From NCBI GenBank assembly GCA_036279355.1, contig DASUJH010000044.1, positions 3,926 to 67,925 of the forward strand: a stretch of 64,000 nt of DNA, read 5' to 3'. The number at the start of each line of letters is the position of its first letter. Position 1 is the stretch's first letter. Both the position numbers and the translations under genes were made by a program. The stretch comes from Gemmatimonadales bacterium. Its GTDB lineage: Bacteria; Gemmatimonadota; Gemmatimonadetes; Gemmatimonadales; GWC2-71-9. The notes under the pieces were generated by a model. It was not told the origin of the DNA. It made no database searches and saw nothing but the letters and a program-made list of their open reading frames with translations. Below are positions 5,346 to 34,804 of the stretch, piece after piece.

Positions 5346-6983
5346 ATGCGGCGCACTCCTCCTGTCCGAGGCCCCTTCCGAACCGACCGCCGGGCGCGGG
5401 CCGCGTACGCGGAGGGCGCCGGCATCTATCGCATCGTGCCGCGCGCCGTCTGCCTTCCCGCCGACATCGATGATCTCGTCTCGCTCGTGCGCTGGGCGGC
5501 CGACAAGCGGGTGCCGCTCGTGCCGCGCGGCGCGGGCAGCGGCATGCCGGGTGGCAACGTGGGCGACGGCATCGTGGTCGACGTTACTGGGATGGCGGGG
5601 CCGGCGCTCCGCGTGGACGCCGCCGCACGGCGCGCCGTGATGCGCGCCGGCGAATCGCTCGGTGCGCTCGAGGCCGCCGCCGCGCCGCTCGGCCTGCGCC
5701 TGCCACCGGACCCGTCGAGCTGGCGCTGGGCCACCGCGGGCGGTGTCGTGTCGACCAACGCCGCCGGCGCGCGGTCGGTGCGCTACGGCAGCATGCGTGC
5801 GTGGGTGGAGAGCGTCGAGCTCGTCACCGCCGACGGTGACATTGCGTCGCTCCGGCGCCGCGGCGAAACTCGGTCCGGGCCCGCGGCGCTCGCGCGCTTC
5901 GAGCACGACGCGGCGCCCGCCATCCGCGCCGCGGCACCGCTCATCTCGAGCCGCTTTCCCCGCGTTCGGAAGAACTCCTCCGGCTACGCGCTCGACGCCT
6001 GGCTTCGAAGCGGCGACGCGCTCGACCTCGTGGTGGGCGCCGAGGGTACCCTCGGCATCATCGCCGCGGTCGAATGGCGGCTCGATCCGGTGCCGCCCCA
6101 TCGCGCAGGGCTCCGCGTGATCCTGGCGGAATACGCGGCGCTCCCCGAGGTGGTGGCCCGACTCCTCGCACTCGAGCCTTCGGCCATCGAGCTGCTCGAC
6201 CGGACGTTTCTCGAGCTGGTGGCCGCCCCCGGCACCGACGCGTTCACCGGGAATCGCGGCGCCGAGGCCGTGCTGCTGGTCGAATTCGAGAATGAGGACG
6301 CGGCACGCCTCCGCGAGACCGTCGGGAGGGCGGTGGCGGCGGCGCGCCCGCTCGCCTTCGGTGTGGACGCGGCGCTCTCGCCCGCGGGCGCCGAGCGCCT
6401 CTGGCAACTCCGCCACGCGGCGAGCCCCATCCTCGCGAGTCTCCCGCCCGATCGCCGCTCGCTCCAGGTGATCGAGGATGCCTGCGTGCCGGTGCCCAAG
6501 CTTGGCGAGTACGTCGCTGCGGTGCGGCGCGCGGCGGAGGCGCGCGGGCTCCAGGTCGTCGTCTTCGGCCACGCGGGCGACGGCAACGTCCACGTCAACG
6601 TGCTGCCCGAGCTGGCACGGAGCGGTTGGGAGCAGGCGATCGCCGGTCTGCTCGACGAGGTGAGCGACGCAGTCGTGCGCATGGGCGGCGTACCCTCGGG
6701 CGAGCACGGCACCGGTCGCCTTCGCGCGAGCCTCCTCGAGCGGATCTACGGCGAGGAGATCGTCGCGCTCTTCCGCCGGGTAAAGGCGAGCTTCGATCCC
6801 CTGGGAATCCTGAATCCCGGCGTTATCCTTCCGTCCGGCGAGCCGCCGATCGGCCGGCTCAAGGCGGGGAGCTCGGCGGCGGCGCTGCCGGCGGACATCG
6901 CCGGCGCGCTGCGCGAGATCGAGCAGCATGCGGGCTACGCAACACCCCGGCTTCCACTCGCGGATCGCCGCCGTCGCCGGTAA
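5346..6983 (+). CDS. FAD-binding oxidoreductase (GlcD / D-lactate dehydrogenase family)
   Basis: PCMH-type FAD-binding N-terminus (VPLVPRGAGSGMPGGNV) and a C-terminal GHAGDGNVHVN ... SGEHGTGRLR motif. Confidence 0.8.
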   Translation: MRRTPPVRGPFRTDRRARAAYAEGAGIYRIVPRAVCLPADIDDLVSLVRWAADKRVPLVPRGAGSGMPGGNVGDGIVVDVTGMAGPALRVDAAARRAVMRAGESLGALEAAAAPLGLRLPPDPSSWRWATAGGVVSTNAAGARSVRYGSMRAWVESVELVTADGDIASLRRRGETRSGPAALARFEHDAAPAIRAAAPLISSRFPRVRKNSSGYALDAWLRSGDALDLVVGAEGTLGIIAAVEWRLDPVPPHRAGLRVILAEYAALPEVVARLLALEPSAIELLDRTFLELVAAPGTDAFTGNRGAEAVLLVEFENEDAARLRETVGRAVAAARPLAFGVDAALSPAGAERLWQLRHAASPILASLPPDRRSLQVIEDACVPVPKLGEYVAAVRRAAEARGLQVVVFGHAGDGNVHVNVLPELARSGWEQAIAGLLDEVSDAVVRMGGVPSGEHGTGRLRASLLERIYGEEIVALFRRVKASFDPLGILNPGVILPSGEPPIGRLKAGSSAAALPADIAGALREIEQHAGYATPRLPLADRRRRR

Positions 6984-7011
6984 ACTCAGCAGTCCAACCC
7001 GAGACACGCCC

Positions 7012-7764
7012 ATGGAAATCTTCCGCGAGCCCCGCGTCACCCTCGTCGCGCGCCCCGAGTTCATCGAGCCCGCGCACCTCGCGGTCGAATGGAGGGGCGC
7101 GGCTTCGGGCGGCGAGCGTCTCGCCGAGTTCGCCGGACGGCTCTGCTACATGAGCCAGCACAACCCGGCCGGCCGCACCACGGCCGAGTACCTGGAGAAC
7201 ATCCTGAAGCAGGGGCACGGCTCGGTCTTCGAGCACGCCGTGTACGTCCTTCTGATCGAAGGGATTTCGCGCTCGTGCAGCCACGAGCTGGTCCGGCACC
7301 GCGCTGGCTTCGGCTACTCTCAGCTCTCACAACGGTACGTCGACGAGTCTCAGGCCGCGTTCGTGATGCCGCCGGCGGTTCAAGGTGACGCCGCGCTCGA
7401 GGCGGCGTGGACGGAGCAGGTGACTTCGGCGCAGGCGGCCTACGTGACTGCCGTGGCCGACCTCATGGCGCGCTACGCGTCGGAGAGCGACCGCGTGCAC
7501 CGCAGGAAGATGGCGCGCGAGGCCGCGCGGAGCGTGCTGCCCAACGCGACCGAGACGAAGATCGTCGCGAGCGCCAACGTCCGCGCCTGGCGCACCATGC
7601 TCGAACTGCGACTCGCGGAAGGCGCGGAGCTCGAGATCCGCCGCATGGCGGTGGCCTGTCTCAACGTGCTCGCGGCGGAAGCGCCCGCGCTCTTCCGTGA
7701 TTTCGAGATCTACCGCGCCGCGGACGGCGCAGACGCCGGCCGAGTCGCCTATCACAAGGTGTGA
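7012..7764 (+). CDS. thyX: FAD-dependent thymidylate synthase
   Basis: ThyX signature RHRAGFGYSQLSQRY, plus HGSVFEH. ATG 7012 follows an implausible in-frame N-terminal extension. Confidence 0.9.
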   Translation: MEIFREPRVTLVARPEFIEPAHLAVEWRGAASGGERLAEFAGRLCYMSQHNPAGRTTAEYLENILKQGHGSVFEHAVYVLLIEGISRSCSHELVRHRAGFGYSQLSQRYVDESQAAFVMPPAVQGDAALEAAWTEQVTSAQAAYVTAVADLMARYASESDRVHRRKMAREAARSVLPNATETKIVASANVRAWRTMLELRLAEGAELEIRRMAVACLNVLAAEAPALFRDFEIYRAADGADAGRVAYHKV

Positions 7765-7857
7765 GCGAGAAAAAAGTCGCGACCAATCCTGAAAAAACTA
7801 TTGTGCGTCGCTCCGGCAGTTCTTAGTTTATTGGTGTGAGGTAACTCAACCCGACTC

Positions 7858-7885
7858 GGCTCGTCTCGTGCGGACGGCCTTTTTT
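7858..7885 (+). terminator. intrinsic-terminator-like hairpin plus T-tract
   Basis: GGC(T)CGTC - TCGTGCG - GACGGCC followed by TTTTTT. It lies about 95 nt after the thyX stop and 8 nt before the next start. Confidence 0.6.
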
Positions 7886-7892
7886 GTAGAGG

Positions 7893-9005
7893 GTGCCTCT
7901 GCCAGTTCGAATCGGACTCGCCTTCAACGTCAAGCCAAAGGCTCCGGCCACCACCGCCGGGGCGACCGCCGAGTCTCCCGCATCACACGAGCCCATCAGC
8001 CGGGCGCTCCGCTCCGATCTCCAGCAGCCCGACCTCTACATCGAGTGGGACGAGCCCGCTACGATCGACGCGGTCGAGCGCGCGCTCGCCACGGTGGGCG
8101 ACGTGATCCGCCTCGAGGCCGATCAGGATTTTCCGCAGCGGCTGCTCGACTATCGTCCGGATTTCGTCTTCAACATCGCCGAAGGCCTCGTGGGTCAGAA
8201 CCGCGAGAGCCACGTCCCGGCCATCTGCGAGTTCCTCGGCGTGCCGTGCCACGCGTCTGACCCGCTCGCCCTGGCACTCGCGCTTCACAAGGGCCGCGCC
8301 AAGGAAATCTTCGAGCAGCACGGCGTGCCCACCGCGCCCTTCCGCCTCGCCCGCAGCGTGGCCGACGCGCGGAGCACGCGGCTCCCGTTTCCGCTCTTCG
8401 TGAAGCCGGCGTTCGAGGGCTCCGGCAAGGGCGTCAGCGTGCGAAGCCTCTGCCGTGATCGCGCCGAGTTGGTGGCGCAGGTGGGCGCGTTGCTCGAGAC
8501 GTACCGCGAGCCGGTGCTCATCGAGACCTACCTGCCCGGCCGCGAGTTCACCGTTGCCATTCTCGGCAACGGTGAGGAGGCGCGCTGCCTCCCGATCGTG
8601 GGCATGTGCTTCGACAGTCTGCCGGCCGGCGCGCCGCCCATCTACGGCTATGAGGCCAAGTGGGTGTGGGACACGCCGGAGCGGCCGCTCGCCATCTTCG
8701 AGTGCCCCGCGCAGGTCCCCGAGGCGCTCGCCGCAGAGTTGAGATCCGTGGCGCTCGCCGCGTACGCCGCGCTCGACTGCCGCGACTGGTGCCGCGTCGA
8801 TCTCCGCTGCGATGTCGCGGGCCGGCCGATGGTGGTCGAGCTGAATCCGCTCCCCGGCGTCCTCCCCGACCCGCGGGAGAACTCCTGCTTCCCCAAGGCC
8901 GCCGCCGCGGCCGGGATGTCATATGAGGAGCTGATCTGCACCGTGGCGGACATCGCCTGGCGCCGGATCAGTGGCCGTTCGCTCCTGGCGGAGGTTGCCT
9001 CGTGA
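7893..9005 (+). CDS. D-alanine--D-alanine ligase-family ATP-grasp enzyme (paralog 1)
   Basis: ATP-grasp layout: HKGRAKEIFEQHGVPTAPF, FPLFVKPAFEGSGKGVS, VLIETYLPGREFTVAILG, RVDLRCD...VVELNPLPG. Not located in a mur/fts context. Confidence 0.8.
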   Translation: MPLPVRIGLAFNVKPKAPATTAGATAESPASHEPISRALRSDLQQPDLYIEWDEPATIDAVERALATVGDVIRLEADQDFPQRLLDYRPDFVFNIAEGLVGQNRESHVPAICEFLGVPCHASDPLALALALHKGRAKEIFEQHGVPTAPFRLARSVADARSTRLPFPLFVKPAFEGSGKGVSVRSLCRDRAELVAQVGALLETYREPVLIETYLPGREFTVAILGNGEEARCLPIVGMCFDSLPAGAPPIYGYEAKWVWDTPERPLAIFECPAQVPEALAAELRSVALAAYAALDCRDWCRVDLRCDVAGRPMVVELNPLPGVLPDPRENSCFPKAAAAAGMSYEELICTVADIAWRRISGRSLLAEVAS

Positions 9006-10015
9006 GAGCCGCGGTCATCTACGACGCGGGCAGCGAGGACTGGTCGCCGCAGGACGTGGCCGCGGTGCTGAGCAACGTGCACGAAGTCCGCGCCTCGCTC
9101 CGGCGGCGGGACGTCGAGGTGGGCCTTGTGCCGGTGCGGCTCGGCGGGTTCCACTGGCTCTCGCGCGCCCGCCGGGCCGATGTGATCGTGAACCTCTGCG
9201 AGGGCATCAACGGGCACGCGCGGTTCGAGGACTACGTCGTCAACACCCTCGAGCTTACCGGGCTGCCGTTCACCGGCTGCCGCGCGTGGCCGGTGAGCGT
9301 GTGCCACCGGAAGCACGTGGCCAACACGCTGCTCGCCAACGCCGGCGTGCCGGTGCCCGCGTTCGTGCTGGCGCAGGGCGCCAATCGCATCCCGGCCGAC
9401 TTCCCCCTGCCCGCCATCGTGAAGCCCGCGGCCGAAGATGCGAGCGTCGGCATCGACGCGAGCGCCGTCTGCACCAGCCGCAAGGCGCTGCGCAAGCGGG
9501 TGGCGCAGATGACGGAGCAGTTCGACGAGGTATTGGTCCAGGCGTACGTGGCGGGCCGCGAATTCAACGCCGGATTCATCGGCAAGCAGGCGCTGCCGCT
9601 CGCCGAGATCCGGTTCGACGCCATGCCGGCGGGGAGCTGGCCGATCGTCACCTATGCCGCCAAGTGGTCCAGCGGCAGCCTCGACGATCTCGGCACCATG
9701 CCCGTCTGCCCGGCTGAGGTGCCCGCCGAGCTCGGCCGCCGGATCGTGCAGACGGCGTGGCGCGCGTGGGAGCTCCTCTGCGATGCGCAGGGTTACGGAC
9801 GGGTGGACCTCCGGCTCAGCGCCGACGGCGAGCCGTATGTGCTCGAGGTGAATCCCTGCCCCGACCTTTCGAGCGGCGCCGGGCTCGCCCGCATGGCCCA
9901 CGCCGCCGGCTGGACCTACGACGACCTGGTGCACGCGATCGTGGACGAAGCGCTCGAGCGTTCCCGGAGCGCGCGCTTTGCCGCGGCGCTTGCGAGTGGG
10001 GTGCCCGCCGCCTGA
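9002..10015 (+). CDS. D-alanine--D-alanine ligase-family ATP-grasp enzyme (paralog 2)
   Basis: GTG 9002 overlaps the upstream stop (GTGA). Motifs: PAIVKPAAEDASVGI, VLVQAYVAGREFNAGFIG, GRVDLRLSADGEPYVLEVNPCPD. Confidence 0.8.
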   Translation: MRAAVIYDAGSEDWSPQDVAAVLSNVHEVRASLRRRDVEVGLVPVRLGGFHWLSRARRADVIVNLCEGINGHARFEDYVVNTLELTGLPFTGCRAWPVSVCHRKHVANTLLANAGVPVPAFVLAQGANRIPADFPLPAIVKPAAEDASVGIDASAVCTSRKALRKRVAQMTEQFDEVLVQAYVAGREFNAGFIGKQALPLAEIRFDAMPAGSWPIVTYAAKWSSGSLDDLGTMPVCPAEVPAELGRRIVQTAWRAWELLCDAQGYGRVDLRLSADGEPYVLEVNPCPDLSSGAGLARMAHAAGWTYDDLVHAIVDEALERSRSARFAAALASGVPAA

Positions 10016-10509
10016 TACACACCCTGGCTGCCGCTCCGCCCCGGCTTCGTGGCCTCACGGCCGCCGATCGCGACCGCGTGGCCGCGATCACTCGCGCGGT
10101 TCGCCTCTTCCGCGAGGACGAAGTGCCGGTGGCCCTCGAGGTCTTCGACGGCGCGGTCGCGGGATCTCCGGACTATCTCGCCTTCGGTGCCGATGTGAGC
10201 GACACGCTCGCCGGCTGGATCTGCTGGGGGCCCACGCCCTGCACCCTCGGCACCTACGATCTCTACTGGATGGCGGTGGATCCGCCCTGGCAGCGCGCCG
10301 GCATCGGCAGCGCGCTTCTGGGTGAGATGGAGCGGCGGCTCCGGGGCCATGCACGGCTGGTCGTGGTCGAGACCGCCGGCCGCGCGGATTACGGCCCCAC
10401 CCGGCGCTTTTACGAATCCCGCGGCTACGCACGCGCGGGGCGGATTCCGGAGTTCTATGCCCCGGGCGACGATCTCGTCGTCTACACCAAGGTTCTCACG
10501 AACGGGTGA
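10012..10509 (+). CDS. GNAT-family N-acetyltransferase; start codon unresolved
   Basis: Acetyl-CoA motif WQRAGIGSALLGEME, and a C-terminal FYESRGY. Domain-like sequence begins right at the upstream stop. The only in-frame candidates are CTG 10012/10024 or GTG 10078. Confidence 0.7.
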   Translation: MIHTLAAAPPRLRGLTAADRDRVAAITRAVRLFREDEVPVALEVFDGAVAGSPDYLAFGADVSDTLAGWICWGPTPCTLGTYDLYWMAVDPPWQRAGIGSALLGEMERRLRGHARLVVVETAGRADYGPTRRFYESRGYARAGRIPEFYAPGDDLVVYTKVLTNG

Positions 10510-11675
10510 CGTCAATGGAGAGCTGGCAAGAGGTCCTGCGAAAGAACTCGATACACTCGCTCGACGCGCTCGCGGAGCGGTTCGGGCCCGAGCACTTTCC
10601 CGAGCTGGATCGGCTGCGTCAGGCCGCCGAGAACTTCGAGTTCCGGATTTCGCCGGCGATGCTGGAGCTCATCCAGTCGCCCGACGACCCGATCTGGCGG
10701 CAGTACGTGCCCACGGTCGAGGAGCTCGAGGTGGTGGACGGCATCGTCGATTCGCTGAGCGAAGATCGCGACAGCCCGGTGCCCAACATCACGCACCGCT
10801 ACCCCGACCGCGCGCTCTTTCTCGTCTCCCCCGTCTGCGCCAGCTATTGCCGCTTCTGCACCCGCCGGCGCAAGGTGGGCGATCCGCAGAAGATCCCGAT
10901 GTCGCAGTTCGAGAGCGCCTTCCGATATCTCGAGGAGCACAGCGAGATCCGCGACGTGATCATGAGCGGTGGCGACCCGCTCCTGCTCAACGACCGGCGG
11001 CTCGAGGCCATCCTCACCCGGCTCCGGGCCATCCCACACATTGAGATCATCCGGATCGGGAGCCGCGTTCCCTGCCATCTTCCCGAGCGGATCACGCCGG
11101 AGCTCTGCGCCATGCTGCGGCGGTTCCATCCGCTCTTCATCAACACGCACTTCAACCACCCCGACGAGCTGACACCCGCGGCCGTGCACGGGCTTGGCAT
11201 GCTGGCGGACGCCGGCATTCCACTCGGCTGCCAGACGGTGCTGCTCCGCGGCGTCAACGACGATCCGCTCGTCATGCGGCGCCTCATGCAGCGGCTGCTC
11301 ATGGCGCGGGTGCGGCCCTACTACATCTACCAGGCCGACCAGGTGGCCGGCGCCGAGCATTTCCGGGTGCCGATCGAGCGTGGCCTCGAGATTATGCAGG
11401 CCCTCCGCGGCTGGACCAGCGGCCTCGCGGTGCCGTACTACGTGATCGACGCGCCCGGCGGTGGCGGCAAGATCCCGCTGCTGCCGGAGTACGTCGAGCG
11501 GATCACCGAGGACGAGGTGGTGCTGCGCAACTTCCAGGGCAGGCGCTTCGTCTACAAGCAACCGCAGGAGCCGGTCGAGGTGGGCGCGGACCCGGAGTTC
11601 TTCGTGCCGCCCAAGTTTTCGCTTGAGGCGCCGCGTCGCAAGCGACAGTCGAAGATTCGGCGGAAGTCGGCGTAG
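10506..11675 (+). CDS. KamA-family radical-SAM aminomutase (lysine 2,3-aminomutase-like)
   Basis: CASYCRFCTRR (CX3CX2C), SGGDPLL, and DAPGGGGKIPL (PLP-lysine region). GTG 10506 overlaps the GNAT stop (GTGA); ATG 10515 is an alternative start. Confidence 0.88.
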   Translation: MTSMESWQEVLRKNSIHSLDALAERFGPEHFPELDRLRQAAENFEFRISPAMLELIQSPDDPIWRQYVPTVEELEVVDGIVDSLSEDRDSPVPNITHRYPDRALFLVSPVCASYCRFCTRRRKVGDPQKIPMSQFESAFRYLEEHSEIRDVIMSGGDPLLLNDRRLEAILTRLRAIPHIEIIRIGSRVPCHLPERITPELCAMLRRFHPLFINTHFNHPDELTPAAVHGLGMLADAGIPLGCQTVLLRGVNDDPLVMRRLMQRLLMARVRPYYIYQADQVAGAEHFRVPIERGLEIMQALRGWTSGLAVPYYVIDAPGGGGKIPLLPEYVERITEDEVVLRNFQGRRFVYKQPQEPVEVGADPEFFVPPKFSLEAPRRKRQSKIRRKSA

Positions 11676-13569: not shown

Positions 13570-14451
13570 ATGACCATGCAGACCTCTCGCTCGCTCGCGG
13601 CCGCCTTGCTCGCGGGCGCCCTCGTCCTCGCGGCGTGCAGCGGCGATACGACCGCGCCGGGCCCGCAGGGGCGGATGACCATGAGCCTGGCCTCTCGCGC
13701 GAGCGGCGCGCCGAGCGCGCGCCTCGCGTCTTTCGATATCACGTCGCCGACGCCGGGGACATTTTCCGATGGCACCAATACGCTGGTGCTGACCAGGGTC
13801 CAGGTTGTGCTTCGAAAGATCGAGCTCAAGCGTACCGGCGTGTCGGTGTGTGCCGACCTGCCCATGCCCGTCGAGATCAACACCGATGAGGGAAGCGGCG
13901 GGGGCAACGGGAGCGGCGAGGCCGAGCCTGGTGACGATCACGGCCACGACGGCGTGGAAGACGACTGCGAGGAAGCCGAGCTCGGCCCCATGCTGCTCGA
14001 CGTGCCGGTCGCGACGGCGGGCGCCGAGCAGTCGATCTCGGTGCCGCTCGACGCGGGCACTTACGACAGGGTCGAGTTCCAGATTCACAAGCCCACCGGG
14101 TCGAACGACGCCGCGTTCCTTCAGACCGATCCCGGATTCGACGGCGTGAGCATCCACGTCGAGGGCACCTGGAATGGCGCGCCGTTCACGTTCAACAGCG
14201 CGATCACGGCCGTCGAAGAGCTGGAGCTCGAGCCCCCGGTGACGCTCGCCGCCAACGGCACTACCGACCTTACGGTGCTGGTGGACGTGAGCCAGTGGTT
14301 CTCCGACGGCGCCGGGGCGCTGATCGATCCGTCGTCGGCCAACGACGGCCAGCCCAACGAGAGCCGCGTGCAACAGAACATCCAGGCATCGTTCCATGCC
14401 TTCGAGGATGCGAACGAGGACGGGAGGGACGACCACGGGACCAACGGCTGA
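13570..14451 (+). CDS. hypothetical secreted lipoprotein
   Basis: Signal peptide plus lipobox LVLAAC. Acidic GDDHGHDGVEDDCEEAE loop. Start is ATG 13570 or 13576 (GGAG at 13565-13568). Confidence 0.65.
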   Translation: MTMQTSRSLAAALLAGALVLAACSGDTTAPGPQGRMTMSLASRASGAPSARLASFDITSPTPGTFSDGTNTLVLTRVQVVLRKIELKRTGVSVCADLPMPVEINTDEGSGGGNGSGEAEPGDDHGHDGVEDDCEEAELGPMLLDVPVATAGAEQSISVPLDAGTYDRVEFQIHKPTGSNDAAFLQTDPGFDGVSIHVEGTWNGAPFTFNSAITAVEELELEPPVTLAANGTTDLTVLVDVSQWFSDGAGALIDPSSANDGQPNESRVQQNIQASFHAFEDANEDGRDDHGTNG

Positions 14452-15793
14452 TTCGATCTGGATCGCGCTCGTGCGCCTCTCCGAAAGCTTTCGGTCGGCC
14501 TTAACGGGACTGGCGGCCGAGATCGGGGTGGACTTGCTCGAGTGGGCGCCGGCAGGGGGCGATTCGCCTCCGGCCGGCGCCGCGCTGGTTCTCGTGCTCG
14601 CGGGCGGCGAGGAAGCTGCGGCGCTCGAGACCGTCGCCGAGCTGGCAGCCTCACCGGGCCCGGTATATCTGGTCGGCGGCGCGCCAGATCATCGCATCGC
14701 CGCATCGGCCTTGCAGCGCGGCGCGCGCGATTACTTCGCGCTGCCGGACGATCTCGACCTGCTGCGCCGCTCGCTCGAGCGCGAGCTGCGCGAGGCCCGG
14801 GGGCATCGCGATGCGGTGCGCTTTGCCGACGCCGAGCGGAGGGTCGCCGGCTTCGAGGCCATCCTGGGGCGGAGCCCGGCGCTGCACCGGACCCTCGCGC
14901 AGGCGGCGCGGGTGGCGCCGCACCCGGACGTGACCGTGTTGGTGGGCGGCGAGACGGGGACCGGCAAGGAGTTGCTGGCCCGGGCCATCCACTACAACAG
15001 CCCGCGCTCGGCGGCCCCGTTCGTCGAGATCAACTGCGCCGCGATTCCGGGGACGCTGCTCGAGAGCGAGCTCTTCGGGCACGAGAAGGGTGCGTTCACC
15101 GGGGCCATCGCCGCCAAGCCGGGGCTCTTCGAGATGGCGCACGGCGGCACGCTCTTTCTGGATGAGGTGGGCAACCTGCCCATCGAGCTGCAGCCCAAGC
15201 TGCTCCGCGCCCTCGAAGGCCGCGAGATCCGGCGGGTGGGTGGCCAGGCGGTGCGGACGGTGGACGTCCGCGTGATCGGTGCGACTCACGTGGATCTCGC
15301 GGCCGCGGTACGCAGGGGAGAGTTCCGCGAAGATCTCTTCTACCGGCTCAATGTCGTGGCACTGACGCTCCCGCCGCTGCGCGAGCGCGACGGCGACATC
15401 GAGCTCCTCGCGGAGACGTTCCTCGCGCGCCTTGCCACGAGCTACGGTCTGCCGGTGCCGCCACTCACGCCGGAGGGCCGCACGCTGCTCCGGATGCACC
15501 CCTGGCCCGGCAACGTGCGCGAGCTTCGCAACGCGATCGAGCGGGCGCTCGTGCTCTCGCCGCCGGGCACGCTGCGATCCGAAGAGTTGCAGCCGCCCTC
15601 CGCCGATCAGCGCCCCGGGCCGCGCGCGCCGGATGCGCTGCCGTTTCCGTCCGATCTCGCCGCCCTCGCGCGCGCGGCGGCGGCCCGGATGCTCGAGCTC
15701 ACCGGCGGCAATAAGAGCGAGGCCGCGCGCCGGCTCGCGATTTCGCGCCCGCGGCTCCAGCGGCTGCTCGACGGCCTGAGCGACGACGCCTGA
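14396..15793 (+). CDS. sigma-54-dependent transcriptional activator (NtrC/Fis family) with a degenerate receiver-like N-domain
   Basis: AAA+ core GETGTGKELLARAIH, ESELFGHEKGAFTGA (GAFTGA), and a C-terminal HTH (GGNKSEAARRLAISRPRLQRLL). Start is uncertain: ATG 14396/14408 overlap the upstream gene, or GTG 14471. Confidence 0.88.
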   Translation: MPSRMRTRTGGTTTGPTADSIWIALVRLSESFRSALTGLAAEIGVDLLEWAPAGGDSPPAGAALVLVLAGGEEAAALETVAELAASPGPVYLVGGAPDHRIAASALQRGARDYFALPDDLDLLRRSLERELREARGHRDAVRFADAERRVAGFEAILGRSPALHRTLAQAARVAPHPDVTVLVGGETGTGKELLARAIHYNSPRSAAPFVEINCAAIPGTLLESELFGHEKGAFTGAIAAKPGLFEMAHGGTLFLDEVGNLPIELQPKLLRALEGREIRRVGGQAVRTVDVRVIGATHVDLAAAVRRGEFREDLFYRLNVVALTLPPLRERDGDIELLAETFLARLATSYGLPVPPLTPEGRTLLRMHPWPGNVRELRNAIERALVLSPPGTLRSEELQPPSADQRPGPRAPDALPFPSDLAALARAAAARMLELTGGNKSEAARRLAISRPRLQRLLDGLSDDA

Positions 15794-17479: not shown

Positions 17480-17807
17480 CGACGCTGTAGATCGCGAGAT
17501 TGAGCCCGACCACGAACATGCCGAGCGCCACCTGCACGCCGTGCGTGAGTCCCGCCGGATACAGCACCGGCAGGATGTAGTGACCCACGAAGTCTCCCGC
17601 GTACGCCGGCTGGCCGGACGCAAGCCGGAGCGAGTTCTCCAGCGGAGTGAGCGGACAGACGCGCCCGCTGAACTCGATCCATGCCCCCCAGGCGGCGGCT
17701 GGGAGGTGGGCCCACGCGACCCACCCCCACCGAAGCACCAGCAGCCCACCCAATACCACGAACAGCACGAACGCGACGTGAAACAGCACGACGAGATCGG
17801 CGATCAC
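17421..17807 (-). CDS. small integral membrane protein, DUF2784-like
   Basis: Sequence ADLVVLFHVAFVLFVVLGGLLVLRW...CPLTPLENSLR. GTG 17807 overlaps the EF-G stop (GTGA). It is the terminal part of the composite 876-aa ORF. Confidence 0.65.
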   Translation of the reverse strand: MIADLVVLFHVAFVLFVVLGGLLVLRWGWVAWAHLPAAAWGAWIEFSGRVCPLTPLENSLRLASGQPAYAGDFVGHYILPVLYPAGLTHGVQVALGMFVVGLNLAIYSVVTARSRRPPPTSPQSRPAT

Positions 17808-19870
17808 GACGCGGCCGCGTGCTCCTTCTGATTCTCCTCGGCGACTTTGGCCGCCACCTCCGGTGGCGCCTCGGCGTACCCGCGGAACGCCTGCCGATAG
17901 GTGCCGCGCCCGTGCGTGATCGAGTGCAGCGTGGTGGAGTATCGGTAGAGCTCCGCCTCGGGCAGGATCGCCCGCACCTTGGTGAGCCGCCCATCCTGCT
18001 CGGTGCCGAGGATCTGCCCGCGGCGTGAGCTCAGGTCGCCCATCACGTCGCCCAGCACGTCTTCCGGCGCCCACACCTCGACGTCGGAAAGCGGCTCGAG
18101 CAGCACGGGGCGCGCCTTCGGCGCCACCATCCGGAACGCGAGGATGCCGGCCATCTTGAACGACATCTCGTTGGAGTCGACGTCGTGGTACGATCCGTCG
18201 AAGCACTCGGCGGTGAAATCCACCAGCGGATAGCCGGCGATGACGCCGCGCTCGGCCGCTTCCTGGATGCCGCGGTCCACCGCCGGGATGTACTTGCTGG
18301 GAATGACGCCGCCCACGATGCTGTCGACGAACTCGTAACCCGAGCCGCGCGCCTGCGGCGCGAGCCGGATCCAGCAGTCGCCGTACTGCCCGCGGCCGCC
18401 GGTTTGCTTTTTGTGCTTGCCCTGGCCCTCCGCGCGCCCCTTGAGCGTTTCGCGGTAGGCCACCTTGGGCCGCACCAGGTCCGCGTGCACGCCGAACTTG
18501 CGCGCCAGCCGGCCGAGAATGGTCTCGAAGTGACGCTCGCCCATCCCGTGAATCAGCGTCTGGCCCAGCTCCGAGCTGTACTCGAAATGGAAGGTGGGGT
18601 CCTCCTCGTGCAGCTTGTGCAGACCCGCCGCGAGCTTGTCCTCCTCGCCGCGCTGCTTCACGATCACGGCCGACGTCGCCACCGCCGCGGGGAACGGGAT
18701 CGGCGGGAGCCGCACCGGGTGATCGCGGCGGCAGAAGGTGTCGCCGGTATGCGTGTTCTTGAGTTTGGCGACCGATCCGATGTCGCCGGCCGAGAGCCGT
18801 TCCACCTCGATGCGCTCCTTGCCCTGCTGCACCGACAGGTGATTCAGCTTTTCCGACACCTCGTGCTCCGCATTCCAGACCTCGTCGCCGTTCTTGAGCT
18901 CGCCGGCGTAGAGCCGGAAGAAGCTCACGTCGCCCACGTGCGGCTCGGAGACGGTCTTGAACACGCGGCCCAGGAGCGGCGCGTCCTTGGGCGCGCCCTC
19001 GGGCAGCGGCGCCTCGAGCGGCGAGGGGAACAGCTCCACCATCTTCTTGAGCAGCGCGCGCACGCCGTAGGTCAGCTCGGCGCTCCCGCAGAAGAGCGGG
19101 ACGATGGCGCCCTCGCGCATGCCGCGGTGCATTGCCTGGATCACCTCGTCGCGCGCGATCGGCTCGCCGCCCAGATAGCGCTCGATCAGCGTGTCGTCGG
19201 TCGAGGCGACCGTCTCCGTGAGCTGCTCGGTGTACTGGTCGAAGCGCGCCTGGTACTCCGGCGGCACCGGCACCACGTCGTACTCGCCCGTCTTGGTGCC
19301 GTGCTTGTAGAAGTGGCAGTGCCCGGAGAAGAGATTGATGATGCCGTGAAAGTCGTGCCCGTCGCCGATGGGAATCTCGACCGGGACGACCTTGGGCGTG
19401 AGGTGCGTCTTCACGTCCTGGAAGACGCGCTCGAAGTCGGCGTGCTCCTTGTCCATCGCGGAGACGAACAGGATGCGGGCCAGGTGCAGCTGATCGCACA
19501 CCTCGTACGCCTTCTCGGTGCCGACCTCGACGCCGGCGGTGCCGTTCACGACCACGACCGCCGCATCCGCCGCGTGAAGGCCGGTGACCACTTCGCCGAA
19601 ATAGTCGAGATAGCCCGGGGTGTCGATCAGGTTGATCTTCGTATCCAGCCACTCGGCGTACGCGAGACTCAGGCTGATGGAGTGCTGGCGTTCGATTTCG
19701 TCGGGGGAGTAGTCGGTGAGCGCGGTGCCGTCCTTGACCGAGCCGTGTCTGCGGCTCGCACCGGAGACGAAGGCCAGGGCATCCACCAGCGAGCTCTTGC
19801 CGCTGCCTCCATGGCCGACCAGCGCGACGTTCCTGATGGCGTTCGAGCCATAGACCTTCATGGCCGCCAC
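17804..19870 (-). CDS. elongation factor G paralog (EF-G2-like translational GTPase)
   Basis: 688 aa. G1 is GHGGSGKSS instead of the canonical AHIDAGKT. DTPGYLDF-type G3 motif. Domains II-V are recognisable. Confidence 0.85.
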   Translation of the reverse strand: MAAMKVYGSNAIRNVALVGHGGSGKSSLVDALAFVSGASRRHGSVKDGTALTDYSPDEIERQHSISLSLAYAEWLDTKINLIDTPGYLDYFGEVVTGLHAADAAVVVVNGTAGVEVGTEKAYEVCDQLHLARILFVSAMDKEHADFERVFQDVKTHLTPKVVPVEIPIGDGHDFHGIINLFSGHCHFYKHGTKTGEYDVVPVPPEYQARFDQYTEQLTETVASTDDTLIERYLGGEPIARDEVIQAMHRGMREGAIVPLFCGSAELTYGVRALLKKMVELFPSPLEAPLPEGAPKDAPLLGRVFKTVSEPHVGDVSFFRLYAGELKNGDEVWNAEHEVSEKLNHLSVQQGKERIEVERLSAGDIGSVAKLKNTHTGDTFCRRDHPVRLPPIPFPAAVATSAVIVKQRGEEDKLAAGLHKLHEEDPTFHFEYSSELGQTLIHGMGERHFETILGRLARKFGVHADLVRPKVAYRETLKGRAEGQGKHKKQTGGRGQYGDCWIRLAPQARGSGYEFVDSIVGGVIPSKYIPAVDRGIQEAAERGVIAGYPLVDFTAECFDGSYHDVDSNEMSFKMAGILAFRMVAPKARPVLLEPLSDVEVWAPEDVLGDVMGDLSSRRGQILGTEQDGRLTKVRAILPEAELYRYSTTLHSITHGRGTYRQAFRGYAEAPPEVAAKVAEENQKEHAAAS

Positions 19871-20004
19871 CTCCTCGGGTATGGTGAATTTCCATTTTGC
19901 GGTGCGGGCCCGCCGATGTCAAATCAGGCGCAGCGTGATGGCGGTCACGTTGCCGGCGCCGCGCGGCGAGCACCTTGCTGTGACACGCGTGAGGGAGTCG
20001 TGCC

Positions 20005-31315: not shown

Positions 31316-32893
31316 TCACGCTGCAGAACTGGACGGCGGACTCGGCCTGAGCACCCGGCCGCTCGTCGCTTCCTCCTGCGCCCGCGCGCGCCGCATGTCC
31401 GATCCCACCGTACGCGCGGCGGCGAGCATCAGGATCCCGCCCACCACCGCCACCGCCGGCAGCAGGAACACCGCCCGCTCGATCCCGAATCGATCCGAGA
31501 GCGCGCCAATGAGCGGAAACGAAATCGTGTCGCCCGCGAGGTGAATGAACAGAAGATACGCCCCCACAACGGTCGCGCTGATCCGCGCCGGCACCACGTC
31601 GAAAATGACGGCGGTGATCGGCCCGTTGAACCACGTGAGGAAGAAGAACGCCGCGCAGAAGACCGGCACGAACACGTCGAGGTCGCGGATCCCGAGCAGC
31701 CAGAGTGCGAGCGGTCCGCCGATCAGCAAGCCTATCGACACGGTGAGCGCGCGGCCCCGGTCGGTGTATCGCCGCATCCAGTCGGCCAGCAGGCCGCCGG
31801 CGATCGAGCCCAGAATGCCCGCCGCGAGTCCGGGCACGCCCAGCAGGTCGGCAAAGGCGCCGGCCGTGAGCCCGAACACGCGCGCCACGAGCGAGGGTGC
31901 CCAGGCGAGCAGTCCGTTGAGCCCGAACGAGACCAGCGCGCCCGCGATGAACACGTAGACCAGCGTCGGCGTGCGGAGCACCGCCTGCGCGGCGCGCATG
32001 AGGTCGCCCAGCGGGCCGGGGCCGCCGGCCGCGGTGCCCAACATCGCCGGGACATATGATTCGCCCGATTGCACCGGCACGAGCTTGCCCGCGCGCGCCG
32101 CGGCCCGGCTCTGCTTCACCCACGAGCGGATGTTGAGCGCGAGCCCGATTCCCACTGCGGCGCCGAGTGCCGCGACGTCCGCCTTGGACGTGGCGCCGTA
32201 GACCCGATCGAGGACCACGGCGGCCACGGTGCCGATCGCAACGCCGACCGCGAGCGGGATGCACTGGCTGAGCACGGCCGACGCGCCGACGCCCAGGCTC
32301 CGCAGGTACTCGCGCAGCGGCATTGCGGCCGGAGGCCGCACCGGCTCCGCAAGCCGCGCCGCCAGCACCGCGCCGGCGAACCCCGGCAGCCCGACCGCCA
32401 TCAGCGCGGCGCGCCAGCCATAGATCACCTCGAGATGGCCGCCGAGCCAATACGCCAGGCCGCCGCCAAGTGCAAGGCCCGCGGCCAGCACGCCCATGGC
32501 GAGCGCGCGGCCCTTGCCGGGGAAGTAGTCGGCCGCGAGTGAGGTAGCGGCTGTAAGAAAAGCGGCCCCGCCGATGCCCACCGCAGCGCGGCAAACGAAG
32601 AGCTGGCCGAATCCCTCCACCAACCCGCTCAGCACCGTCGCGGTGCTCCAGAGCGCCACGCCGCCTACCACCACCGCGCGGCGCGACCGGAGGTCGCTTA
32701 CCACGCCGAACGGCAACACCGCTATCGAGAACACCAGCACGTACGCCGACGCGAGCCAGCCGAGTTGTGTATCGGTGAGCGCCAAGTCGCGCTTGATCGG
32801 CTCGAAGAGCGCGAAGAGGATGTTGCGGCTTACGTAATTGAGGATGTTGAGGACGGAGAGGAGCCCGAGCGCGTACCACCGGTACCAGGTCAC
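31316..32893 (-). CDS. MFS transporter
   Basis: 12 or more TM helices. N-terminal [20 protein letters not shown] ... SDLRSRR motif A. GTG 32893 overlaps the upstream stop (GTGA). Confidence 0.85.
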
Positions 32894-34050
32894 GGGTGTT
32901 CCCCCGCTGCTGCCTCCGCATCCGCCATCGACTCGTCGGCGCGCCGGTCACGAAACGCGAGCGCCGCCCGATATTCCTCGATCAACCGCGCGAGCATCGC
33001 GTCCCGCCGGCCGTAGAGCCGTTTGAGCTGTCTCGGCTCGTGCCGGTTGAGCGCGTACGCGGTGAGAAGCGGGAGCGCGACCGAGTTGTCGACATAGACC
33101 ACCACCGTGCCCGGAAGTTGATCGGGATCGATCTTCCCCCAGCTCACCGCCTCGGCCGGCGTGGCGCCGGAAAGTCCGCCCGTATCGGGGCGCGCATCGG
33201 TCATCTGCAGGAAGTAGTCGTGGCCCCGCTCGTCAATGCCGAGCACTTCCTGGATTTGCGGCTCAGTCTGGAGCATGAAGTTCTTGGGGCTGCCGCCACC
33301 TACGATGAGGCAGCCGCTCTTGCCGCCGCTCCGCTTGGCCTCGAGCACGATGGCCGCCGTCTCGTTCACGTCGGCGCTCACGTCGAACCGGAGCTTGCTG
33401 CCCGCCAGCGCCTGCTCGGCCACGTTCATGCCGATGGAGCTGTCGCCGGGGGAGCTGGTGTAGATCGGAACGCCCAGATCATGCGCGGCGGCGAGCACCG
33501 AGCGGCGCGCCGCGGCCACCGCGCGCTCGCGCTCCAGCAGGTAGCCGCCGAGCATCCAGTGATATTCGGCCGTGCCCATCGGACGCTGGAACTCCTCGCG
33601 CGCTGATACCTCGCGCACGAACTTGTCGGTCGAGAGCAGCACCGAGTAGTCGAAGAAGATGTCGTAGATCCGCACCACGCCGTGGTCGCGCAGCTCCACG
33701 TCGTCCGCGTGGGGCGTGCCGCGGTGCATCGCGAGGCCCAGCGCGAAGTGGGCGTCGTGATACAGATTGGCGCCAGTCGAGATGATCCAATCGACGAACC
33801 CCGCCTCCATGAGCGGCACCAGGCAGCTCATGCCGAGGCCGGCCGGCGTCATCGCGCCGGTGAGGCTCATGCCGACGGTGGCGTCCGGTGCCAGCATGCG
33901 CTCGACGAAGAGCTGGCAGCCCTCGCGCAGCCGCCCCGCGTTGTACGCGAGGAACGCGTTGTCGATGAGGTCGGCCGCCGTCTCGGTGCCCGTCACCGCG
34001 CGGGGCTCGATCCGCTGGCCGCGGAGGTACTGCGCGGATGGGCGGGTCAC
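32890..34050 (-). CDS. deoxyhypusine synthase-family protein
   Basis: Motifs [34 protein letters not shown], and [12 protein letters not shown] (Lys-containing C-terminal motif). Confidence 0.8.
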
Positions 34051-34060
34051 GATCGCATCC

Positions 34061-34804
34061 TCAATCCTTGGCGGCGCGCGCCCGGGTCACGATTCGCAGC
34101 ACTTCGGCGGGATCGTCGGTGACGTGGAAGAGTTCGAGGTCGCCGATATTGATCTTCCGCTCCGCCGCCACGGTGTGGTTCAGCCAGTTGACCAACGCGC
34201 TCCAGTACGTACGGCCGAAGAGCACGACCGGAAAGTGCTTGACTCTCCCGGTCTGGATGAGCGTCAATGCCTCGAACAGCTCGTCGAGCGTCCCGTAGCC
34301 CCCGGGAAAGACCACGAACGCGGTCGAGTACTTCACGAACATCATCTTCCGGACGAAGAAGAAACGAAAGTTGATCGCACGCGTGACGTAGGCATTGGTC
34401 CCCTGCTCGAACGGCAGCTCGATGTTGCAGCCGATCGACAGCCCCCCACCCTCGATCGCGCCCCGGTTGGCCGCCTCCATGATCCCGGGGCCGCCGCCAG
34501 TGATGATGGGGATGCCCTCCTGAGCCAGGAGCCGCGCGGTCTCGACCGCGGCGCCGTAATGCGGGTCGGCCGGCAGCGTGCGCGCCGAGCCGAAGATGGT
34601 CACACCGTCCTGCACGTCGCCAAGGCTGTCGAACCCCTCGACGAACTCGCCCATGATGCGGAGCACCCGCCACGGATCGGTCTTCCGGAGCGCGTCCGGC
34701 CGCTCGGCGGGCTGGCGGCTGTCGAGCAGCTCCTCGTCCTCGGTCGGACGCCGGTTATCGCCGCTCGCGCGGAACGGCGTGTTGGTCATCTTGTTCGCGG
34801 TCAT
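34061..34804 (-). CDS. LOG-family (TIGR00730) nucleotide phosphoribohydrolase
   Basis: Motifs [24 protein letters not shown], and [12 protein letters not shown]. Confidence 0.88.

Follow-up and report, generated by a model that had tools for sequence, protein, structure and literature searches.

A stretch of 64,000 nucleotides from a Gemmatimonadales bacterium (assembly GCA_036279355.1, contig DASUJH010000044.1, positions 3,926 to 67,925; the whole stretch is called the window here) carries on one strand four genes (Table 1) for two ATP-grasp ligases of the D-Ala-D-Ala ligase (Ddl) type, here AG1 and AG2, a GNAT N-acetyltransferase and a KamA-family radical-SAM/pyridoxal phosphate (PLP) aminomutase, which form a module whose genes stay together across at least nine phyla of bacteria and archaea. 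The four genes are co-inherited, co-oriented, often overlapping or fused, and the catalytic apparatus of each is intact. The module may be a self-contained biosynthesis of a small cationic amide (pseudopeptide) that contains beta-lysine, a reading to which we give about as much credence as doubt.

Homologues of AG1 at 70-83% identity make up more than 120 clusters, practically all of them from Gemmatimonadota, and KamA has the same pattern; an exhaustive search for the ligase family returned 991 clusters (50% identity) at E<=1e-30. On three long Gemmatimonadota contigs the same four genes follow a flavin adenine dinucleotide (FAD)-linked oxidase and ThyX (or ThyA together with dihydrofolate reductase (DHFR)), and the downstream genes are unrelated. 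Scanning one genome per GTDB species with a 10-sequence alignment of diverse relatives gave 80 loci, picked by their AG1 similarity, onto all of which the four window proteins were mapped, and gene orders were counted in the 73 non-redundant loci that offered 3.9 kb or more of room. The order AG-AG-GNAT-KamA on one strand is found in 63 of these 73, spanning seven phylum-level groups (26 loci in Gemmatimonadota, 28 in Bacteroidota/Ignavibacteriota/Chlorobiaceae, four in Desulfuromonadales, two in Acidobacteriota and one each in Kryptonia, Planctomycetota and KSB1). The four-gene arrangement that the initial annotation had seen in one genome is therefore a conserved one across many phyla, far beyond chance, and gene fusions support it further. 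Even in an archaeon (L073) the ligases are co-conserved with KamA; in a Bathyarchaeon the order is KamA-AG, with the second ligase on the opposite strand.

All-against-all clustering of every open reading frame (ORF) in the loci found no other gene family common to multiple phyla, the extra cross-phylum 'families' being only antisense ORFs within the four genes, and no transporter, peptidase, precursor peptide or efp gene appeared there as a cross-phylum neighbour. The four genes are thus a self-contained module, and the FAD oxidase and ThyX are a matter of Gemmatimonadota synteny. A permuted order, KamA-AG1-AG2-GNAT, was found by searching with the sequence of PDB entry 2R7H and then through contigs encoding relatives, and occurs in Desulfovibrio mangrovi, an Oleidesulfovibrio-like organism, Woeseia and four other lineages. 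In these the KamA-adjacent ligase is of the AG1 type and the second of the AG2 type, and in some a deacetylase gene stands before GNAT. Two deltaproteobacterial loci and one from Thermodesulfobacteriota have a class I methyltransferase after the ligases, in the place of KamA, and some loci have MFS and APC transporters at their flanks. The phylum labels come from the metagenome-assembled genome (MAG) records, and at least one looks wrong: L008 (JBLMWC010000013.1; protein P0009) is labelled 'Bacillota bacterium' and shows the synteny FAD oxidase-ThyX-AG1-AG2-GNAT-KamA at 63-82% identity to the window, and since this synteny is specific to Gemmatimonadales, mis-binning or mislabelling is likely.

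Gene fusions also link parts of the module. Among the best 150 representatives of the family, four join KamA to a ligase, with both orders represented (P0262, P0304, P0336, P0322), and by its diagnostic residues the ligase domain fused to KamA is always of the AG1 type. A further 41 of the 150 are double-ligase fusions, of about 650-730 aa, and those examined join one AG1-type to one AG2-type domain in either order. As classical Rosetta-stone evidence, these fusions suggest that the product of KamA feeds AG1 and that AG1 and AG2 work as a pair.

Such constant pairing, with the two ligase types often fused and no further biosynthetic enzyme conserved with the module, also bears on another idea, namely that AG1 and AG2 together form a template-independent polymerase, in the manner of the two sites of cyanophycin synthetase, making a beta-lysine oligo- or polyamide as an intracellular cationic storage or counter-ion polymer whose ends GNAT would cap or regulate. 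The family profile does match the ATP-grasp domain of cyanophycin synthetase weakly (E ~5e-7), but Ddl is far nearer to the family (E 1e-55) than any ATP-grasp enzyme that forms polymers, the deacetylase clustered with some modules resembles enzymes for small acetylated amines, and ORF clustering of the loci found no primer, depolymerase or peptidase gene conserved, so that a polymerase seems unlikely. The fuller form of the proposal, a previously unknown cationic cyanophycin-like beta-lysine polyamide, acetyl-capped by GNAT and built by the paired ligases in at least nine bacterial and archaeal phyla, is rather unlikely.

KamA aligns over 341 residues to the lysine 2,3-aminomutase (LAM) of Clostridium subterminale (PDB 2A5H, E 2.7e-111), and in the numbering of that enzyme the window protein retains C125, C129, C132, R134, D293, D330 and K337. 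Across the module-linked KamAs the CX3CX2C cysteines, R134, D293 and D330 are present in 73 of 73, and the PLP lysine K337 in 72 of 73. From work on 2A5H and on glutamate 2,3-aminomutase we take D293 and D330 to be the ligands of the lysine epsilon-ammonium and R134 to serve carboxylate binding. The motifs that had been read from the DNA (CASYCRFC and GGGGK in KamA, QRAGIG in GNAT) are all present. The clostridial-type Zn site and C-terminal multimerisation cysteines (Cys268, Cys375/377/380) are absent, position 268 being Asp and the C-terminal tail being free of cysteines.

Sub-classification of KamA by hidden Markov models, in answer to whether it belongs with AblA, EpmB or another clade, leaves it closest to AblA and reaching only the cut-off of the generic KamA family model (TIGR00238, 286 bits versus 199). 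The nearest curated model is AblA (TIGR03820), where it scores 440 bits versus an equivalog cut-off of 525, and orthologues from Stygiobacter, Trichloromonas, a Bathyarchaeon and a proteobacterium likewise stay below that cut-off with 465-497 bits. It also fails the models for glutamate 2,3-aminomutase (390 versus 650 bits), arginine 2,3-aminomutase (317 versus 600) and EpmB (TIGR03821, 229 versus 369), and since the generic model is the only one passed it lies outside the EpmB clade. The module KamA looks like a distinct, uncurated sub-family of KamA with a lysine-type pocket. Lysine fermentation was considered as a setting for it and rejected, since neither the window nor the set of genes conserved with the module includes any that resembles kamDE, kdd, kce or kal. 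In two Gemmatimonadales (L001 12683-14057, L011 10589-12100) the canonical KamA gene is replaced after GNAT by a very divergent KamA-family gene of 27-29% identity, with CPQYCGHC, and with VCDVPFVGKRW in place of DAPGGGGK; it has no Pfam match and is a KamA-family relative by NCBIfam, under the cut-off, and the L001 copy is broken by a frameshift.

The clade of KamA bears directly on whether the target might be a macromolecule, for example through ATP-grasp beta-lysylation of elongation factor P (EF-P) or of another protein, replacing EpmA in phyla that lack it. Some ATP-grasp enzymes (RimK, TTL) do modify proteins, and the module is vertically conserved as a housekeeping function would be. 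The modification of EF-P by EpmA/EpmB is itself beta-lysyl-lysine (PMC2821294). However, KamA lies outside the EpmB clade, efp adjoins the module in none of about 90 loci, epmA is also found neither in the window nor in those loci, and relatives of the Desulfuromonadales hosts are reported to have yjeA/yjeK plus a separate LAM-type gene (PMC2821294). That clustered deacetylase, moreover, is of the acetylpolyamine type, which fits a small molecule. With the ligases belonging to the small-molecule Ddl family and not to RimK or TTL, modification of a macromolecule is very unlikely.

AG1 and AG2 are paralogues of about 34% identity, each with a Dala_Dala_lig_C domain, as the initial annotation had held, and their PF07478 scores of 116 and 98 bits stand against a gathering score of 24. 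The sequence-profile evidence for a Ddl fold is overwhelming (E 1e-55 for the family profile to Ddl), the closest Ddl structures being only distant matches to the single proteins (E 2e-28 for AG1, 1e-21 for AG2). For the residue analysis, 23 orthologue pairs from all phyla were aligned with E. coli DdlB, in which residues 69-305 were verified and the N-terminus used is consistent with the E15/H63/E68 numbering, the equivalent of E15 being not reliably alignable. K97, K144, E148, E187, K215, R255, D257, E270 and N272 are kept in both ligases, with rare E270D and E148Q/D in a few AG2-type orthologues, and both have Glu at H63 and Trp at Y216. S150, G276 and S281 are kept in AG1, whereas AG2 has Ala or Gly at S150 (window S150A), Asp, or in proteobacteria Cys, at G276 (window G276D) and Ala or Thr at S281 (window S281A); L282 is Cys in AG1 and Gly in AG2. 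These acceptor-site changes of AG2 are consistent across phyla. Positions H63, Y216 and S281/L282 we take, from mutagenesis and structure work on DdlB, to be substrate-site positions of that enzyme.

Shared catalytic residues together with distinct acceptor-site signatures argue that AG1 and AG2 are two ancient and non-redundant ligases, and on their residues both are predicted to be catalytically competent with differing acceptor pockets. The Glu at the H63 position in both would fit a more cationic substrate, and so would the extra acidic residues taken together (Glu at 63, Asp at 276 and the E-x-D and NxxEG motifs conserved in the ligase family). AG1 of Gemmatimonadales also has a low-complexity insert of about 30 residues rich in Ala, Pro, Ser and Thr (window 7935-8030, residues ~15-45), which sits between the first beta-strand and the E-x-D motif and is missing in most relatives from other phyla.

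Given that the top PDB and Pfam matches are Ddl, one of the ligases might be taken for the housekeeping D-Ala-D-Ala ligase, or the cluster for one that modifies peptidoglycan, but the chance of this is practically negligible. AG1 and AG2 reach 164 and 128 bits on NCBIfam Ddl models with cut-offs of at least 243 and fail every Ddl/Van cut-off, H63E and Y216W are invariant, and the module occurs in Bathyarchaeia, with a relative in Nitrososphaerales, both without peptidoglycan. It had also been pointed out that the ligase genes lie outside any mur/fts context, and the 64-kb window indeed holds no mur/fts, ddl or cell-wall genes; that neither ligase is the housekeeping Ddl is borne out by the scores and by the two substitutions.

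The GNAT protein matches Acetyltransf_1 (PF00583) with 39.8 bits versus a gathering score of 20.7, and its QRAGIG fits the Q/R-x-x-G-x-G/A acetyl-CoA motif. At E<=0.01 its NCBIfam matches are only RimI, AAC(6')-Ia and PRK03624, all under their cut-offs, and AblB is not among them, so it is best called RimI-like. Its orthologue-level match is PDB 2R7H (E 1.4e-28), a structural-genomics entry without an assigned function, titled 'putative D-alanine N-acetyltransferase of GNAT family'. P0415, which is 99% identical to 2R7H, is encoded in the KamA-AG1-AG2-GNAT module of the Oleidesulfovibrio-like organism, and the title appears to have been guessed from the neighbouring Ddl-like genes. In or beside the module in five lineages (Desulfovibrio mangrovi, L088, Woeseia, L091 and Desulfuromonas L051) there is also a deacetylase-like protein of 500-585 aa, whose C-terminal domain matches acetylpolyamine amidohydrolases (APAH; PDB 3Q9B, 6PHR, 9GKZ) at E 1e-71 to 1e-63, far more strongly than HDAH-type or histone deacetylases, and whose N-terminal domain is GNAT-like. 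This accessory protein has no NCBIfam match, and it is found neither in the window nor in any Gemmatimonadota locus fetched.

Since AblA is the nearest curated family to KamA, and since KamA with a GNAT is the enzyme composition of AblAB (PMC3543383, PMC9337991), the module might simply make acetyl-beta-lysine with two of its enzymes, the two ligases being unrelated in function. The ligases, however, are more constant partners of KamA than GNAT is, as the GNAT-less AG-AG-KamA loci and the KamA-ligase fusions indicate, the GNAT is a 165-aa protein unlike AblB, and KamA stays under the AblA cut-off in every phylum tested. Plain acetyl-beta-lysine synthesis is accordingly highly unlikely.

In the pathway that would yield a small cationic pseudopeptide, KamA would convert L-lysine to beta-lysine, as its conserved catalytic and lysine-binding residues strongly suggest. 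AG1 would take beta-lysine directly and form an amide bond through an acyl phosphate, for which fusion and adjacency argue strongly, and AG2, with its different acceptor pocket, would make a second and different amide bond. GNAT would put an acetyl group on a free amine, in either the substrate or the product, to cap that amine or to protect it transiently, and the APAH-like deacetylase, where present, could remove the acetyl group, in a protecting-group logic or in the turnover of an acetylated solute. The product is perhaps a compatible solute. A small cationic pseudopeptide is favoured by the action of the Ddl family on small molecules, by the likeness of the deacetylase to enzymes for small acetylated amines and by precedents, among them N-acetylglutaminylglutamine amide (NAGGN) and N-acetylaspartylglutamate (NAAG); the presence of the APAH-like deacetylase, the methyltransferase variants and the flanking MFS and APC transporters were also counted for a small molecule. 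A small acetylated beta-lysine product itself has its precedent in N-epsilon-acetyl-beta-lysine (PMC3543383, PMC9337991).

Several points weigh against this proposal. Beyond the joint action of the four enzymes all of it is what we infer, and the co-occurrence figures, coming from loci selected by AG1 similarity, are valid for the AG1 sub-family and not for all Ddl-like ligases. The KamA clade falls under the AblA cut-off, so that a non-lysine substrate is possible despite D293 and D330. Four of the 73 loci (both Rokubacteria and two Gemmatimonadaceae) have AG-AG-KamA without GNAT, and acetylation is then not essential; another four have AG-AG-GNAT without KamA nearby. The hosts come from soil, freshwater, sediment and hot springs and are not halophiles, which does not particularly favour an osmolyte role, and the loci compared share no dedicated exporter or importer as a conserved companion of the module.

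Transport is also where a secreted bioactive metabolite, a beta-lysine antibiotic or signal, has to be considered, with GNAT and, where present, the deacetylase providing self-resistance or pro-drug handling as in the acetylation of streptothricin. Several antibiotics contain beta-lysine, a pair of acetyltransferase and deacetylase is a usual mark of self-protection and MFS transporters adjoin some loci, but no exporter is conserved, the GC composition of the window (G+C about 70%) has no island signal, and in Gemmatimonadota the module sits at a fixed syntenic place by thyX and the FAD oxidase, its identities resembling those of the housekeeping genes around it. Fixed synteny and such identities speak for vertical inheritance and not for a mobile biosynthetic island, and a secreted metabolite seems quite unlikely.

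Table 1. Coordinates of the module genes and of the elements in their leader (positions in the window)
Feature	Position	Strand	Description	Match
Promoter-like conserved boxes	7798..7831	+	CTATTGTG, ~14 nt gap, then TTCTTAGTTTA	
GC-rich hairpin + T6	7858..7885	+	GGCTCGTC...GGACGGCC, directly 5' of ribosome-binding site and start codon	
AG1	7893..9005	+	Ddl-like ATP-grasp ligase type 1, 370 aa	Pfam Dala_Dala_lig_C, 116 bits
AG2	9002..10015	+	Ddl-like ATP-grasp ligase type 2, 337 aa	Pfam Dala_Dala_lig_C, 98 bits
GNAT N-acetyltransferase	~10012..10509	+	~165 aa	Pfam Acetyltransf_1, QRAGIG motif
KamA-family radical-SAM/PLP aminomutase	10506..11675	+	389 aa from GTG 10506, 386 aa from ATG 10515	Pfam Radical_SAM + LAM_C

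At the locus itself the four ORFs have a coding-type codon composition (G+C at third codon positions 0.85-0.90), and the entry 'MAG TPA: hypothetical protein VFW66_10680 [Gemmatimonadales bacterium]' matches AG1 at 100% identity. The same-strand overlaps first read from the window are there, as GTGA at 9002-9005, CTGA at 10012-10015 and GTGA at 10506-10509. The tetranucleotides stand, but as start sites two of them are less simple, GNAT having no canonical start at its junction and the KamA overlap being one of two possible starts, of which the database copy uses the other. Gene starts are in general uncertain by a few codons. The junction codon CTG 10012 of GNAT is at the same site where relatives show ATGA, GTGA or TTGA, and the next canonical in-frame start, GTG 10078, would cost about 20 conserved residues; translation of GNAT probably begins at CTG 10012 or by reinitiation. 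The annotated start of AG1 is GTG 7893, and the TTG start of relatives corresponds to window 7899, which here is CTG. The closest relative, L005, shares with the window both the CTGA at the GNAT/AG2 junction (10012-10015) and the CTG at AG1 (7899-7901), and it has no alternative in-frame start following an upstream stop, which suggests CTG initiation or termination-reinitiation in this lineage.

The leader of the operon has two conserved elements. The boxes are kept in 12 Gemmatimonadales loci and remain beside AG1 even where the spacer between thyX and AG1 is 679 nt; the second box reads TTCTTA(C/G)TTTA across Gemmatimonadales (window 7798-7892; L001, L005-L014). A scan for sigma-70 promoters found none, and the boxes, which resemble the Bacteroidota-group promoter type (-33 TTG / -7 TAnnTTTG), may act as a promoter. 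The hairpin with its T6 lies less than 20 nt before the start codon of AG1, was scored as a terminator-like site and is the only consensus structure that RNAalifold finds in 12 leaders (8 pairs, 1 compensatory). In more distant Gemmatimonadota the sequence of the stem differs and the layout of hairpin, T6 and GTAGGAGG is retained. It looks like a terminator or attenuator within the 5' leader, and that all transcripts have to pass the terminator-like element suggests an attenuator. As for a riboswitch, no Rfam model matches in the window at gathering thresholds, and near the leader there is only a chance-level match to SymR.

Upstream in the window the module is preceded by the FAD-linked oxidase and ThyX; downstream come a family-5 solute-binding protein gene in convergent orientation, a gene for a hypothetical protein and one for a sigma-54 activator (14396-15793, 2.7 kb downstream of the module and syntenic in L001). 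In L002 thyA and folA (DHFR) occupy the thyX position upstream of the module (5928-7225), so that at this fixed locus one thymidylate synthase stands in for a non-orthologous one. The Desulfovibrio modules have directly upstream a gene for a sigma-54 enhancer-binding protein (L085 2857-4569, L086 2874-4465); KamA of D. mangrovi (L085) is preceded by a canonical -24/-12 promoter, TGGCATATCTGTTGCT (TGGCAT-N5-TTGCT), and a CGGAACA-N-TGTTCCG palindrome recurs upstream of KamA in L085 as well as in L086. A paralogue of an elongation factor G (EF-G)-like GTPase with all five EF-G domains is found a few kb downstream of the module (window 17807-19918, minus strand; L003 13451-15547), in the window and in nine Gemmatimonadota loci, which is probably synteny only. 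About 21 kb from the module, and unlinked to it in other loci, the window encodes a deoxyhypusine synthase homologue (32893-34086, minus strand; Pfam DS, E 4e-67) that is in a bacterial genome, adjoins an MFS transporter gene and could be a homospermidine-synthase-like enzyme.

The known fates of beta-lysine are few: an acetylated osmolyte, EF-P modification, lysine fermentation and a few antibiotics. If the pseudopeptide reading is right the module would add a further one, through enzymes routinely annotated as 'D-alanine-D-alanine ligase' and 'lysine 2,3-aminomutase', with two substrate specificities that are new to Ddl-type enzymes and, possibly, a logic by which diamino acids are protected and deprotected with acetyl groups. 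As the phyla that conserve it are abundant in soil and sediment but little cultured (Gemmatimonadota, Ignavibacteriota, Acidobacteriota, Rokubacteria and others), the product may be a common unrecognised environmental metabolite. The module is also present in cultured organisms that are in part tractable (Oleidesulfovibrio alaskensis G20-like, Desulfovibrio mangrovi, Stygiobacter electus), and for one of its components an orphan crystal structure, 2R7H, is already available. No equivalog in NCBIfam (June 2026 release) covers any of the four module proteins, no paper in open-access full text was found to link the aminomutase with these ligases, although the ATP-grasp neighbourhood survey by Iyer et al. 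2009 may mention the association, and the G20 transposon-library paper does not mention the module genes. The module is thus a widely distributed variant of known chemistry, not described by a curated family or by an open-access paper found.

Compared with known systems, AblA/AblB, which methanogens and some bacteria use to make N-epsilon-acetyl-beta-lysine, likewise clusters a KamA-family aminomutase with a GNAT, and D293 and D330 are kept here; the module differs in its sub-cut-off KamA, its short non-AblB GNAT, its two constant ATP-grasp partners and its gene order. EpmA/EpmB also draws its beta-lysine from a KamA-family aminomutase, for an amide to a lysine amine, but the module KamA is not EpmB and its neighbourhood has neither efp nor a tRNA-synthetase paralogue like EpmA. 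With Ddl and VanA the module ligases share the Pfam domain and the ATP-grasp catalytic residues, but they fail all the cut-offs of these enzymes and sit with KamA, not with cell-wall genes. The accessory deacetylase shares its APAH-like domain with APAH but carries the fused N-terminal GNAT-like domain. Ngg for NAGGN, and NAT8L with RIMKLA/B for NAAG, follow the same logic of N-acetylation and an ATP-grasp amide leading to a small N-capped peptide, but their ligases are of the RimK/cyanophycin type and not the Ddl type, and those routes have no aminomutase or beta-amino acid. The PDB matches listed for AG1, for AG2 and for the family profile (in the last case the best 60 of 96) did not include PylC. 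The closest mechanistic precedent for a lysine isomer joined by an ATP-grasp enzyme is PylB/PylC, in which a radical-SAM enzyme rearranges lysine and an ATP-grasp ligase then couples the product to an amine by way of an acyl phosphate; PylB does not belong to the KamA-family/PLP enzymes, and the module has two ligases and an acetyltransferase, and no PylD.

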